Shown here: positions 10,960 through 53,969 of the stretch, in pieces
Numbering within the stretch: position 1 is the first letter of the stretch
Layout: each line of letters begins with the position of its first letter
NCBI RefSeq assembly: GCF_056712565.1
Contig: NZ_CM160072.1
Strand: one strand, 5' to 3'
DNA length: 64,000 nucleotides
The notes under the pieces: generated by a model
Database searches by the model: none
What the model was told of the DNA's origin: nothing
Seen by the model: only the letters and a program-made list of their open reading frames with translations
Position numbers and translations under genes: made by a program

Positions 10960-11970
10960 TTATCGCGAAAGAGCAATGAGTGAGCCGCGGCGGATTAGTT
11001 TTCCGCTGAAGGTTTTCGGCGGTGAGAAATCCCCGCCATCGAGCATAAAAATCAGCCGTCCAATAATTTCCTGAATCATCTCAGTCACCGGAATTTTTAC
11101 GCTGGAGAGCGCCGGAACGATGTAGGGGGCAATAGCGATATCATCGAATCCGATAACTGACACCTGCTCTGGCACCGCTACGCCGCGCTCGTGTAACGCT
11201 TTGATCGCACCTATCGCCATATCGTCGTTACTGGCAACTAACGCGCTAAATTTAGCCCCACGTTCGAGCAACGTTTCTACCCCTTCGGCACCGCTGGCGG
11301 GCGTCCATTTACCGTTAGCGATAAGTTTTTCATTGAACGCAATACCATGCTGCGCCAGCGCGTCTTTATATCCGGCAAGACGTTCAATGCTGGTGGGGGA
11401 ATCCATCGAGCCGGTAAGGAAAGCAATCTCCTGATGTCCGGCGGTTATCAACTCTGCCACGGCGTTAAAGCTGGTCTGTTTATGATCGCACCAGACGCTA
11501 TGGCTGCTGTTTTTGCGCAGGCGGCGATTAAGCACCATTATCGGCTGACTGTGTGCGTCAATGATGTCATCAATCTCATCCACGCTTAAAAAGCGCGGGT
11601 AAATCATGATGGCGTCGCAGCGCAAATCCAGCAGATACTGAATCGCCTGGCGCTCTTCTTCGGCGCTATGTTTACCATCTGCCAATAGCAACTGTCGCCC
11701 TTTCTCTTCCGCCATTCGCGCGGCATGAAACAGTAATTCACTAAAATAAATGCCATGGTAAAGCGTGTTGGTCACGACCAGCCCCAGCGTCTGAGTACTC
11801 TTCGCCGACAGATTGCGCGCCAGCAAGTTTGGACGGTAACCGCTCTCTTCTACCGCCTGAAACACGCGATCTTTAGTCTCCTGGCTGACGTAGCCATTAC
11901 CTGAAAGCACGCGGGAAACGGTCGCTTTTGAAACCCCGGCGCGCTTCGCCACTTCCAGCATCGTCGTCAT
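10960..11970 (-). CDS. ascG: LacI-family repressor of the cryptic asc operon
   Basis: N-terminal LacI-type HTH (MLEVAKRAGVSKATVSRVL) plus periplasmic-binding-protein-like domain; start placed at MTTMLEV (336 aa); divergent from ascFB. Confidence 0.88.
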   Translation of the reverse strand: MTTMLEVAKRAGVSKATVSRVLSGNGYVSQETKDRVFQAVEESGYRPNLLARNLSAKSTQTLGLVVTNTLYHGIYFSELLFHAARMAEEKGRQLLLADGKHSAEEERQAIQYLLDLRCDAIMIYPRFLSVDEIDDIIDAHSQPIMVLNRRLRKNSSHSVWCDHKQTSFNAVAELITAGHQEIAFLTGSMDSPTSIERLAGYKDALAQHGIAFNEKLIANGKWTPASGAEGVETLLERGAKFSALVASNDDMAIGAIKALHERGVAVPEQVSVIGFDDIAIAPYIVPALSSVKIPVTEMIQEIIGRLIFMLDGGDFSPPKTFSGKLIRRGSLIALSR

Positions 11971-12057
11971 CATTTTCATCCCTTTACACGCAATCAACGC
12001 AGTGTACTGCACCGTTTGCCGATTGTCCTTGCGCAATCGGCGGGAAAAATATTCAGG

Positions 12058-12144
12058 TGACCGGTTTCACAAATATAAAAAATGAACAATTAACTCTCTT
12101 GCTTATTGCATGTTAACTATTCATGATTTTGTGAAACCGGTTTC
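12058..12144. promoter_or_regulatory. Pair of palindromic LacI-family operators in the ascG-ascF divergent region
   Basis: TGACCGGTTTCA (12058-12069) and TGAAACCGGTTTC (12132-12144): near-perfect palindromes centred on CCGG, typical GalR/LacI-family operators. Confidence 0.75.
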
Positions 12145-12229
12145 CCAATTCCGTTTCAGCATCGGCATTTTTCCGTCACGTCGACTGATAACAACTACAT
12201 CTACCCTACTGATAACAGGATAAAATCCG

Positions 12230-15120
<2,891 letters not shown>

Positions 15121-15128
15121 GTAACCGT

Positions 15129-15192
15129 GCCGGATGCGGCGTGAACGCCTTATCCGGCCTACAAGGCCCGATAAGCGTTGCGCATCGGGCAA
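15129..15192. repeat. REP element pair downstream of ascB
   Basis: GCCGGATGCGGCGTGAACGCCTTATCCGGCCTACA followed by GGCCCGATAAGCGTTGCGCATCGGGCAA; REP-type palindromes. Confidence 0.8.
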
Positions 15193-15217
15193 TCTTGGGT
15201 TTGGCATCAGTCAAAAA

Positions 15218-15637
15218 TCAAAGAAACCATTCCGGCTTAACGCCAAATCGGGCTGAAAGTGCCTTAATGTGGGATATCGTCAGGGAACGTTGTCCAGATA
15301 AAATCTGACTGACCAGGGATTTAGAGCCGATTTCGTTCTTCAAATCCGCATAGGTCAGATTATGTTGATCAATCAGCGTACGAAGTAACGCCACGCCAAC
15401 CGGCATTGCTGCAACGGCTTTGTCGAACTCTGCAAACTTTTCGTTATTGTTTTCATATTCTGCAATGCGGCTCGCCAGAAAGTCGATAAGTGGATTGGTA
15501 TCATCTTCTTCAATCAAATATTCGACCAGTTCCAGTGCTTCACGATAATCATCTTCTGAGTCACTGCCTCCCAGAAAGGGGACTGCATTGACCAGTTCTC
15601 TTGTTGCTTTAACAGCGCGTGCAGCATTAGCAGTCAT
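15218..15637 (-). CDS. HigA-family antitoxin-like protein with C-terminal XRE-type HTH
   Basis: 139-aa ORF; C-terminal HTH (EIGSKSLVSQILSGQRSLTISHIKALSARFGV) and acidic helical N-domain resemble recalled E. coli HigA (YgjM) at roughly half identity by eye. Lies in a segment between ascB and hycI that I do not recall in K-12. Confidence 0.75.
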   Translation of the reverse strand: MTANAARAVKATRELVNAVPFLGGSDSEDDYREALELVEYLIEEDDTNPLIDFLASRIAEYENNNEKFAEFDKAVAAMPVGVALLRTLIDQHNLTYADLKNEIGSKSLVSQILSGQRSLTISHIKALSARFGVKPEWFL

Positions 15638-15662
15638 TCTTTGTTCTCTCTGTAGTATCGTG

Positions 15663-15848
15663 TCAGACGCTCACTTTTCTAAAATGCCATGTTTGCTCGG
15701 CATCATAAGGCATGGTCAGGAGAGGTTTCAGCACCCGCTTTTGCGCATATTCGCCGTCACTCATTGGCAGATATTCGGTAAAGCTGGTGGCCTGTGCAGG
15801 CAGCACTAAGCTCAATAAAAAAGCGCACATCCCTGTTCTGATGTTCAA
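15663..15848 (-). CDS. Hypothetical small protein with Sec-type signal peptide, co-oriented just upstream of the HigA-like gene
   Basis: 61 codons from TTG (55 from an internal ATG at 15830); predicted signal peptide with AQA cleavage motif; stop lies 25 nt before the HigA-like ATG. No similarity to HigB/RelE recognised. Coding status uncertain. Confidence 0.3.
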   Translation of the reverse strand: MNIRTGMCAFLLSLVLPAQATSFTEYLPMSDGEYAQKRVLKPLLTMPYDAEQTWHFRKVSV

Positions 15849-52390: not shown

Positions 52391-53428
52391 ATGTTTTCCG
52401 CATTGCGCCACCGTACCGCTGCCCTGGCGCTCGGCGTATGCTTTATTCTCCCCGTACACGCCTCGTCACCTAAACCTGGCGATTTTGCTAATACCCAGGC
52501 ACGACATATTGCTACTTTCTTTCCGGGACGCATGACCGGAACTCCTGCAGAAATGTTATCTGCCGATTATATTCGCCAACAGTTTCAGCAAATGGGTTAT
52601 CGCAGTGATGTTCGGACATTTAATAGTCGGTATATTTATACCGCCCGCGATAATCGCAAGAGCTGGCATAACGTGACGGGAAGTACGGTGATTGCCGCTC
52701 ATGAAGGCAAAGCGCCGCAGCAGATCATCATTATGGCGCATCTGGATACTTACGCCCCGCTGAGCGATGCTGACGCCGATGCCAATCTCGGCGGGCTAAC
52801 GTTACAAGGAATGGATGATAACGCCGCAGGTTTAGGTGTCATGCTGGAACTGGCTGAACACCTGAAAAATACGCCTACCGAGTATGGTATTCGATTTGTG
52901 GCGACCAGCGGCGAAGAGGAAGGAAAATTAGGCGCTGAGAATTTACTCAAGCGGATGAGTGACACCGAAAAGAAAAATACGCTGCTGGTGATTAATCTCG
53001 ATAACTTAATTGTTGGCGATAAGCTGTATTTCAACAGTGGCGTAAACACACCTGAAGCAGTAAGGAAATTAACGCGCGACCGGGCGCTGGCAATTGCCCG
53101 CAGCCATGGAATTGCCGCCACCACAAATCCAGGTTTGAATAAAAACTATCCGAAAGGCACCGGGTGTTGTAATGACGCAGAAATATTCGACAAAGCCGGT
53201 ATTGCTGTACTTTCGGTGGAAGCGACTAACTGGAATCTTGGCAATAAGGATGGTTATCAGCAACGCGCAAAAACAGCCGCATTCCCTGCGGGAAATAGCT
53301 GGCATGACGTAAGACTGGATAATCAACAGCATATTGATAAGGCACTTCCTGGAAGAATAGAACGTCGCTGCCGTGATGTTATGCGGATAATGCTACCGTT
53401 GGTGAAGGAGCTGGCGAAGGCATCTTAA
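52391..53428 (+). CDS. iap: Alkaline phosphatase isozyme conversion aminopeptidase
   Basis: 345-aa ORF with signal peptide and M28-type peptidase motifs. Confidence 0.93.
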   Translation: MFSALRHRTAALALGVCFILPVHASSPKPGDFANTQARHIATFFPGRMTGTPAEMLSADYIRQQFQQMGYRSDVRTFNSRYIYTARDNRKSWHNVTGSTVIAAHEGKAPQQIIIMAHLDTYAPLSDADADANLGGLTLQGMDDNAAGLGVMLELAEHLKNTPTEYGIRFVATSGEEEGKLGAENLLKRMSDTEKKNTLLVINLDNLIVGDKLYFNSGVNTPEAVRKLTRDRALAIARSHGIAATTNPGLNKNYPKGTGCCNDAEIFDKAGIAVLSVEATNWNLGNKDGYQQRAKTAAFPAGNSWHDVRLDNQQHIDKALPGRIERRCRDVMRIMLPLVKELAKAS

Positions 53429-53527
53429 TGGGTTTGAAATGATTACTCCCTTGCCTGCAGGAAATCAATGCCACCAGAAACAGAGTATAAAAAAGGGTGC
53501 AGGAGACCAAACCATCACAATTCAGTA

Positions 53528-53546
53528 CGCGGGGTTTTACCCCGCG
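53528..53546. terminator. GC-rich stem-loop at the 3' end of the hok-like gene
   Basis: CGCGGGG-TTTTA-CCCCGCG (7-bp GC stem) 6 nt beyond the hok-like stop on the minus strand and ~100 nt downstream of iap on the plus strand; no U-tract in either orientation. Confidence 0.55.
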
Positions 53547-53552
53547 TGGTGG

Positions 53553-53705
53553 CTACTTCTTCGATTCGTAAGCGAGAACTGCCTTAAACTCCATACCACG
53601 TTCTCTGATACTCAACTCACACAACGAGTCGCCTACCATCAACGTGAATCCCAGTACTGTACAACACAGTACGATGATTGCCACAAGGGCATATTTTGTC
53701 AGCAT
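53553..53705 (-). CDS. Hok/Gef-family type I toxin (HokE-like small membrane peptide)
   Basis: 50-codon [53 protein letters not shown]: hydrophobic N-terminal helix, conserved Cys in SLCEL, C-terminal AYE motif; GGAGG Shine-Dalgarno 7 nt upstream; GC-rich hairpin just 3' of the stop. Close by eye to recalled chromosomal HokE. Confidence 0.8.
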
Positions 53706-53912
53706 GTCTTGCCTCCCTGCAAAGAAGAGACTAACATCCGAATTGCTTAGGTTCGAACGTAGGCCTCAGGTTGATAGAAATATCGCCTGGGGCTTTTGTC
53801 CATCTGGAACCTCGCGAATGCTTAACGCCAGACAGCCTCAAGCACCCAATGCCATTCTATACCTGTTAATTCTCCCTGCGACGTTCTCGTTTAAATGCCG
53901 GAATGCTGCTCG

Positions 53913-53953
53913 CAAAATAAAAACGCCCCCATCATTTCTGACAGAGGCGTTTA
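53913..53953 (-). terminator. Candidate rho-independent terminator of cysJIH
   Basis: Minus strand AAACGCC...GGCGTTT stem followed by TTTATTTT, 17 nt downstream of the cysH stop. Confidence 0.6.
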
Positions 53954-53969
53954 ATTTATCCGGCAATAT

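Follow-up and report, generated by a model that had tools for sequence, protein, structure and literature searches.

A probable sokX antisense RNA gene facing the hokX leader between iap and cysH in a phylogroup B2-type Escherichia coli chromosome

In the hok/sok (parB) system of plasmid R1, Sok is an RNA antisense to the hok leader, with the promoter TTGCGC-N17-TATCCT. R1 Sok is 64 nt long and has an 11-nt tail and a stable stem-loop (PMC1635323). Its duplex with the hok mRNA covers both the Shine-Dalgarno sequence and the AUG of mok, a leader frame of 70 codons that overlaps hok. Mutations in the R1 Sok promoter abolish Sok on northern blots, translation of mok is needed only up to the hok start, and the full-length hok mRNA is closed on itself by pairing between its tac and fbi elements (PMC9841398). 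The same study found that chromosomal Soks give no cross-protection against R1 hok.

A chromosomal hokX/sokX locus between cysH and iap is known in E. coli B, in the AIEC strain NRG857c and in UPEC (PMC7232551, PMC12736100). The first of these studies describes an intact hok in the cysH–iap intergenic region of NRG857c, a B2 strain, and recognizes it as a homolog of E. coli B hokX. The second reports hok together with sokX beside cysH in 90% of uropathogenic strains, the rest having sokX alone, like K-12. In K-12 MG1655 the ncRNA gene sokX (b4701) is annotated at 2887353-2887411 on the plus strand, adjoining cysH. K-12 SokX was seen by RNA-seq under every condition, with no differential expression (bioRxiv 10.1101/2024.06.20.599902), and Ribo-seq data contain reads from it as a structured-RNA contaminant (PMC7580957). 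For chromosomal Sok RNAs the ends are mostly predicted by bioinformatics, and Mok frames are hard to call (bioRxiv 10.1101/2025.08.07.668861). We set PMC4145685 aside, since it concerns hokE and not the sokX locus.

The window analyzed here, a 64-kb stretch of DNA (64,000 nucleotides), is an E. coli phylogroup B2-type chromosome. The gap between iap (52391-53428, plus strand) and cysH (minus strand, from 53970) measures 541 bp (53429-53969) and is 100% identical in Nissle 1917, ATCC 11775, NU14 and others. In B2 genomes the RefSeq annotation places a Hok/Gef family CDS alone in this gap, and sokX is absent from it. The plus-strand elements that we assign to sokX are:

53709-53714, plus strand: –35 box TTGCCT of the sokX promoter, read from the sequence; identical in K-12 sokX
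53732-53737, plus strand: –10 box TAACAT of the sokX promoter, after a 17-nt spacer; identical in K-12 sokX
53745-53762, plus strand: single-stranded 5′ tail of SokX, GCUUAGGUUCGAACGUAG, the target-recognition segment; start taken from the K-12 annotation
53763-53793, plus strand: SokX stem-loop of 13 bp with one bulged U, a GAAA loop and a GCCUC/GGGGC base that includes a U-G pair
53794-53803, plus strand: U-rich 3′ tail of SokX, UUUUGUCCAU, an atypical intrinsic terminator; the annotated K-12 3′ end maps to 53803

Pairwise alignment maps K-12 sokX to 53745-53803 on the plus strand of the window, a length of 59 nt. Within the RNA 55 of the 59 bases are identical, the differences falling at 53746, 53749, 53760 and 53761, and the promoter is identical at all 29 positions (–35 box, spacer and –10 box). 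Synteny with cysH and this near-identity, promoter included, place the feature in the sokX ortholog group (b4701). The original prediction was made from the sequence alone. The promoter that it read as TTGCCT-N17-TAACAT at 53709-53737, antisense to the hok leader, is present exactly as claimed, and its plus-strand RNA of ~60 nt starting near 53745 coincides with the mapped K-12 gene, down to the same G at the 5′ end. We consider it very likely that the plus-strand feature is sokX and that it encodes the antisense antitoxin RNA of a chromosomal type I toxin–antitoxin locus, hokX/sokX, at iap–cysH. As such it is already known: it is the sokX gene of the known hokX/sokX locus.

The K-12 and window genes are alike in their position beside cysH and identical in promoter, hairpin and U tract. 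They differ in that K-12 has lost the hok CDS, whereas the window has a full hokX with its mRNA elements, and in four substitutions, all in the 5′ tail. Similarity between K-12 and the window ends at the hok ATG, and the cas3 flank follows from there on. It follows that in K-12 hok was replaced by the cas3 flank while sokX was retained, which makes K-12 SokX an orphan. This state is common: at a sok-side query coverage of at least 80% we found sokX in 5292 of 5426 complete E. coli genomes, and the full hok-plus-sok segment in 4144, so that by these two queries ~21% of E. coli genomes have sokX without hok. As to the flanks, CRISPR-Cas I-E is absent from the iap–cysH interval of this B2-type window, where iap is the direct neighbour of hokX; O157:H7, W and LR14 have cas3 ~190 bp past the hok stop codon.

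Elsewhere in the window (positions 1-50000), the only large difference from Nissle 1917 is an asc islet at 10966-15668, an indel that led us to reject collinearity of the window with Nissle 1917. The islet carries genes for a LacI-type regulator, a PTS EIIBC and a family-1 glycosidase (ascG/ascF/ascB-like), together with an HTH_3 gene (15218-15637, minus strand). The HTH_3 gene matches the gene beside the Nissle higB toxin. Since only ~29 bp of higB were matched, it appears to be an orphan antitoxin gene.

Like R1 Sok, SokX combines a single-stranded tail, one hairpin with a GCCUC/GGGGC base and a U/C-rich 3′ end in ~60 nt, and in both RNAs the tail is complementary to the loop of the target hairpin. 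The predicted RNA thus has the layout of the family: ~55-65 nt, a single-stranded 5′ tail, one stable stem-loop and a U-rich end. The region 53744-53800 folds with –23.2 kcal/mol (z = –4.0). The stem-loop by itself has a ΔG of –18.3 kcal/mol, versus –11.1 for its reverse complement. The SokX tail is 18 nt long, versus 11 nt in R1 Sok, and the two tail sequences are unrelated; its first 13 nt are unpaired in the MFE fold.

UUUUGU follows the hairpin directly (53794-53799), and a U/C-rich tract lies 3′ of the hairpin in all sok paralogs. The earlier reading of the sequence saw no clean intrinsic terminator within ~80 nt, which is wrong in substance: the hairpin at 53763-53793 with its UUUUGU begins 19 nt past the predicted start. 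Our terminator scan did not list the bulged SokX terminator either. The sok terminators have been described as atypical, and a terminator-based sRNA finder failed on sokA, sokC, sokE and sokX (PMC3326304). The bulge in the stem and the short, interrupted U tract explain why both the scan and that finder missed it.

The tail is the hypervariable segment across sok paralogs. Among five E. coli lineages (B2, O157:H7, W, LR14 and K-12), substitutions in the Sok region are confined to 53738-53762, and the promoter hexamers, the spacer, the hairpin and the U tract are invariant. Across the ~170 bp of the hok/sok control region, all substitutions among these lineages fall within the same 25 bp, which comprise the Sok tail, the target loop and the 5′ arm. 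Such clustering suggests relaxed or diversifying selection on the recognition segment. We also observed that the Sok tail (53745-53764, plus strand) is an imperfect palindrome, GCTTAGGTTCGAA / TTCGAACGTAGGC, centred on TTCGAA, which could form a small alternative hairpin on either strand.

The minus strand carries the toxin gene and its mRNA elements:

53553-53705, minus strand: hokX toxin CDS of 50 aa; Pfam HOK_GEF, 39.1 bits against a cutoff of 22
53690-53847, minus strand: 5′ leader of the hokX mRNA, with a putative TSS at G53847 and a tac-like 5′ end; Rfam RF01794
53760-53752/53742-53734, minus strand: stem of the Sok target hairpin in the hokX leader, with the loop CCUAAGCAA at 53751-53743; Rfam consensus structure
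53488-53507, minus strand: fbi-like 3′ element GUCUCCUGCACCC (53507-53495) and then U6; pairs with the mRNA 5′ end GGGUGCUUGAGGC (53847-53835)
53854-53859, minus strand: putative hok promoter –10 box TAGAAT, 7 nt before G53847; proposed from sequence
53882-53877, minus strand: weak candidate hok –35 box GTCGCA; proposed from sequence

HokX is 78% identical to K-12 HokE, and distant lineages carry a Hok protein identical to that of the window (WP_000956458.1). A hokX RNA of 360 nt ending after U6 at 53488 shows 5′–3′ closure in its MFE fold (–133.2 kcal/mol, z = –3.95), which matches the tac/fbi closure of full-length R1 hok mRNA (PMC9841398). Judged by these elements, the toxin side of the locus looks intact. 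Directly downstream of cysH, and ~40 bp upstream of the putative hokX promoter, we noted a strong intrinsic terminator (53921-53952, minus strand; a 14-bp stem and then a T run), which probably insulates hokX from cysJIH read-through.

SokX can pair without a mismatch to nt 45-103 of the hokX mRNA leader. It is thus antisense to the leader of a Hok-family toxin mRNA, as defined by the HOK_GEF ORF and the RF01794 leader. Nucleotides 1-7 of the tail are complementary to CCUAAGC in the loop of the target hairpin, and the remainder of the tail pairs with the 5′ arm of the target stem. Within the loop, CUAA fits the YUNR U-turn motif, so that the loop is a candidate U-turn.

The Rfam assignment of the leader needs some care. 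In a search at the gathering threshold RF01794, which Rfam names ‘sok antitoxin (CssrC)’, matches 53847-53690 on the minus strand over its full length (112 bits, E = 1.2e-24), and the plus-strand candidate RNA gave no match to this model. The model also hits the hok-sense strand at K-12 sokB, sokC, sokE and sokX and at an R1-type plasmid locus, opposite every annotated sok gene. Since its 157 nt begin with the 5′ end of the hok mRNA and reach the hok start, RF01794 describes the hok leader and not the ~60-nt antisense RNA. The covariance search proposed as a check on the antisense RNA is therefore misleading: the strong match identifies a hok/sok locus, but it lies on the hok-sense strand and says nothing on the antisense transcript. 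We rejected it as evidence for that RNA, the strand inversion at five reference loci being a property of the model. For the same reason we did not use the EHEC RNA-seq entry ‘sok_15/sokX’ as a measure of SokX: its reads were counted over the 152-nt Rfam interval, which has hok sense. Rfam-based pipelines thus give ‘sok’ the wrong strand and length, an error already present in at least one transcriptome paper.

What we observed directly is the orthology with K-12 sokX, a promoter at a conserved position, a hairpin conserved in a strand-specific way and complementarity to the hokX leader. Together with the R1 paradigm these observations outline how the locus would work. SokX would be transcribed constitutively by sigma-70 from TTGCCT-N17-TAACAT, starting at ~G53745, and the U tract would end transcription near 53799-53803, giving a product of ~55-59 nt; by the same analogy these would be the exact ends, and the RNA would act as an antitoxin. 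As in R1 hok/sok, the SokX tail would first contact the loop CCUAAGCAA of the hairpin in the 3′-processed, refolded hokX mRNA, and the duplex would then extend over leader nt 45-103. There it would occlude ribosome entry at a 12-codon leader ORF. If the hok Shine-Dalgarno sequence opens only when ribosomes translate this ORF as far as the hok start, as coupling of the R1 type would imply, it would stay closed under SokX. RNase III would cut the SokX–hokX duplex, and no Hok would be made while SokX is replenished. The ORF in question is:

53699-53737, minus strand: 12-codon mok-like leader ORF, with AUG at 53737-53735 and UGA at 53701-53699 overlapping the hok AUG (AUGCUGA)

This is the only AUG-started ORF reading into the hok start. 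Its stop codon is UAA in O157 and LR14, a change that is synonymous in hok. The AUG is supplied by AUGUUA, the complement of the sokX –10 box, and the position that holds the AUG of mokB, mokC and R1 mok reads UCG in the window. We rejected another upstream AUG, at –98 and inside the duplex, as a mok start, since its frame is closed by a UAA in the target-hairpin loop. The Sok duplex of R1, hokB, hokC and nearly all phage loci contains the leader AUG, which precedes hok by 49-58 nt. Loci of the hokX and hokE types lack this canonical AUG, and their sole AUG is the complement of the Sok –10 box (TAACAT/TACCAT), 6-8 nt outside the duplex.

The RNA had been expected to cover the start region of the small upstream ORF. 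This turned out not to be so: SokX ends 7-8 nt upstream of AUG 53737-53735. The duplex covers neither a mok Shine-Dalgarno sequence nor a mok start codon, and K-12 hokE and one further locus (L010) are arranged likewise. Since the duplex ends short of the leader AUG, covering of the mok start in the R1 style is not literally realized. The hokX ORF also differs from the long, overlapping mok of R1 in stopping at the hok AUG after 12 codons. The closest paralog is SokE/hokE of K-12, which has the same –35 box (TTGCCT) and the –10 box TACCAT, and shares the relocated AUG from the –10 complement, the upper stem GAUA/UAUC, the GAAA loop and the missing canonical mok AUG. The two differ in their tails and in reading frame: the upstream AUG of hokE is in frame and yields a 12-codon N-terminal extension, whereas that of hokX is out of frame and its ORF stops at +4.

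Both kinds of frame are found more widely. In many plasmid and phage loci, an R1-type plasmid included, the leader AUG lies exactly 57 nt before the hok AUG; being in frame, it would extend Hok at its N terminus to ~70 aa. Other plasmid and phage loci have it 58 nt before hok and out of frame (classical mok), so that both classes coexist.

The position of the leader AUG bears directly on an alternative in which SokX represses hokX without any mok-type coupling, either through RNase III cleavage and decay or through an inactive leader fold only, the 12-codon ORF being an accidental by-product of the –10 box. The AUG does lie outside the duplex and has no recognizable Shine-Dalgarno sequence. 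The base that creates it also improves the –10 box, which reads TAACCT in most loci and TAACAT here. Moreover, the hokE AUG is in frame with hok, so the frame of the ORF is not conserved. On the other hand, a duplex end 7-8 nt from an AUG is within the footprint of the 30S ribosome, and the stop overlapping the hok AUG is maintained across lineages, as either UGA or UAA. In addition, mok of R1 need not be translated beyond the hok start (PMC9841398), so that a 12-codon ORF with its stop at this point would suffice mechanistically. On balance, we regard repression without coupling as rather unlikely.

The proposed coupling through the leader ORF can be taken one step further. We tentatively suggest that the hokX/hokE subfamily may represent a variant control geometry, with the –10-complement AUG as the real coupling start and with Sok acting by flanking occlusion and RNase III cleavage; we hold this to be possible rather than probable. 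If true, a single 6-bp element would be both the –10 box of the antitoxin and the start codon of the toxin leader, and the ORF that it opens would be a 12-codon terminate-and-reinitiate frame in hokX and an in-frame N-terminal extension in hokE.

A separate matter is whether the locus does anything in the cell. Chromosomal hokA, hokB and hokC are reported, in work cited in bioRxiv 10.1101/2025.08.07.668861, to be unable to mediate post-segregational killing or rifampicin activation, so physiological activity of hokX/sokX is unproven. SokX could accordingly be transcribed from a non-functional relic, in which hokX is not effectively expressed or SokX acts on other targets in trans. The ~21% of E. 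coli genomes with sokX but no hok fit such a view, as does the continued expression of the orphan K-12 SokX (bioRxiv 10.1101/2024.06.20.599902), and SokX overexpression has no listed phenotype in a biofilm and motility screen. Against a relic, all hok regulatory elements are present and conserved in the window, namely an intact 50-aa Hok, the leader ORF, tac/fbi closure and the target hairpin, and distant lineages retain the identical Hok WP_000956458.1. Moreover, 42 of 45 tested Hok homologs were toxic, chromosomal ones included (bioRxiv 10.1101/2025.08.07.668861). We therefore judge the relic reading distinctly unlikely, and return to sokX as the antitoxin gene of an intact pair and to the evidence that its RNA exists.

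Taken alone, the sokX hexamers are unremarkable. They match the consensus at 8 of 12 positions, four of six in each box, and a consensus promoter scan under a 9-of-12 rule did not list them. Sites of equal or better consensus quality number 186 in the 64-kb window, or 1.45 per kb per strand. The hexamers are thus at chance level, and the reality of the promoter rests on other evidence. We compared the locus with K-12 sokB, sokC, sokE and sokX, one R1-type plasmid locus and 80 phage/prophage hok loci, which yielded 39 unique Sok-side sequences. A –35 box reading TTGCCx or TTGACC occupies the same aligned position in 39/39 unique loci. All 39 also have A at position 2 and T at position 6 of the –10 box (xANNNT), with a spacer of 17-18 nt; the –10 variants include TAACCT, TAATCT, TAACAT, TACCAT, TAAGAT and, in R1, TATCCT. 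A predicted sigma-70 promoter therefore stands at the homologous position, as in R1, with its –35 box abutting the complement of the hok Shine-Dalgarno sequence. This conservation has to be read with some caution. The –35 box overlaps the complement of the hok Shine-Dalgarno GGGAGG (53717-53712, minus strand), and the –10 box that of the leader-ORF AUG. Because both hexamers overlap hok-strand elements, their conservation is not independent proof of promoter function.

Further evidence comes from the hairpin. Since the two RNAs of a cis-antisense pair are complementary by construction, only G-U pairs can tell the strands apart. Sequence homology would trivially give a Sok-sense covariance model its plus-strand match, so we took the strand-neutral comparison of G-U pairs with A-C mismatches as the more informative test. 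In all 36 unique sequences (~12 distinct hairpin types) the Sok-strand hairpin had a lower folding energy than its reverse complement, the means being –23.2 versus –14.2 kcal/mol. The MFE stems of these sequences contain 123 G-U pairs on the Sok strand versus 4 on the hok strand. Covariation points the same way. We aligned 11 distinct hairpin types with MAFFT, which is strand-neutral, and RNAalifold recovered the basal stem, in which 4 of its 10 pairs change on both sides. Counted over this alignment, 90.8% of the 109 cells hold a pair, 30 of them G-U. The covariation score was 0.393, compared with 0.244 ± 0.032 for shuffled alignments, none of 500 shuffles scoring as high; slid controls scored 0.05-0.18. 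These comparisons support selection of the hairpin on the plus strand and hence a real plus-strand RNA. Together with K-12 sokX orthology and family-wide promoter conservation, they support the original prediction of a sigma-70 promoter firing an RNA antisense to the hok leader.

It is against this evidence that the last alternative must be set, in which there is no antisense RNA, the hexamers arose by chance and the conservation reflects minus-strand constraints on the hok leader (Shine-Dalgarno, leader ORF, tac/ucb and target hairpins). This reading can draw on the 8/12 match, which the scan left unlisted and whose like occurs 1.45 times per kb per strand, on the overlap of both hexamers with functional hok-strand elements and on the sole Rfam match being on the minus strand. 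Yet each G-U pair of the hairpin corresponds to an A-C mismatch in the hok-strand RNA (G-U counts of 123 versus 4, with 36/36 favouring the plus strand), SokX is annotated in K-12 and seen by RNA-seq, the homologous R1 promoter is experimentally proven, and K-12 keeps promoter and RNA segment after loss of the hok CDS. The G-U asymmetry and the retained orphan sokX make pure hok-strand constraint very unlikely and leave this reading with next to no probability.

The value of identifying the plus-strand gene as sokX lies chiefly in its correct annotation, with little beyond that. Nonetheless, the intact hokX/sokX pair of this B2 strain is a usable natural system for the question of chromosomal hok activity, and the same pair offers a system for studying how Sok works when the start of the leader ORF lies outside the duplex.
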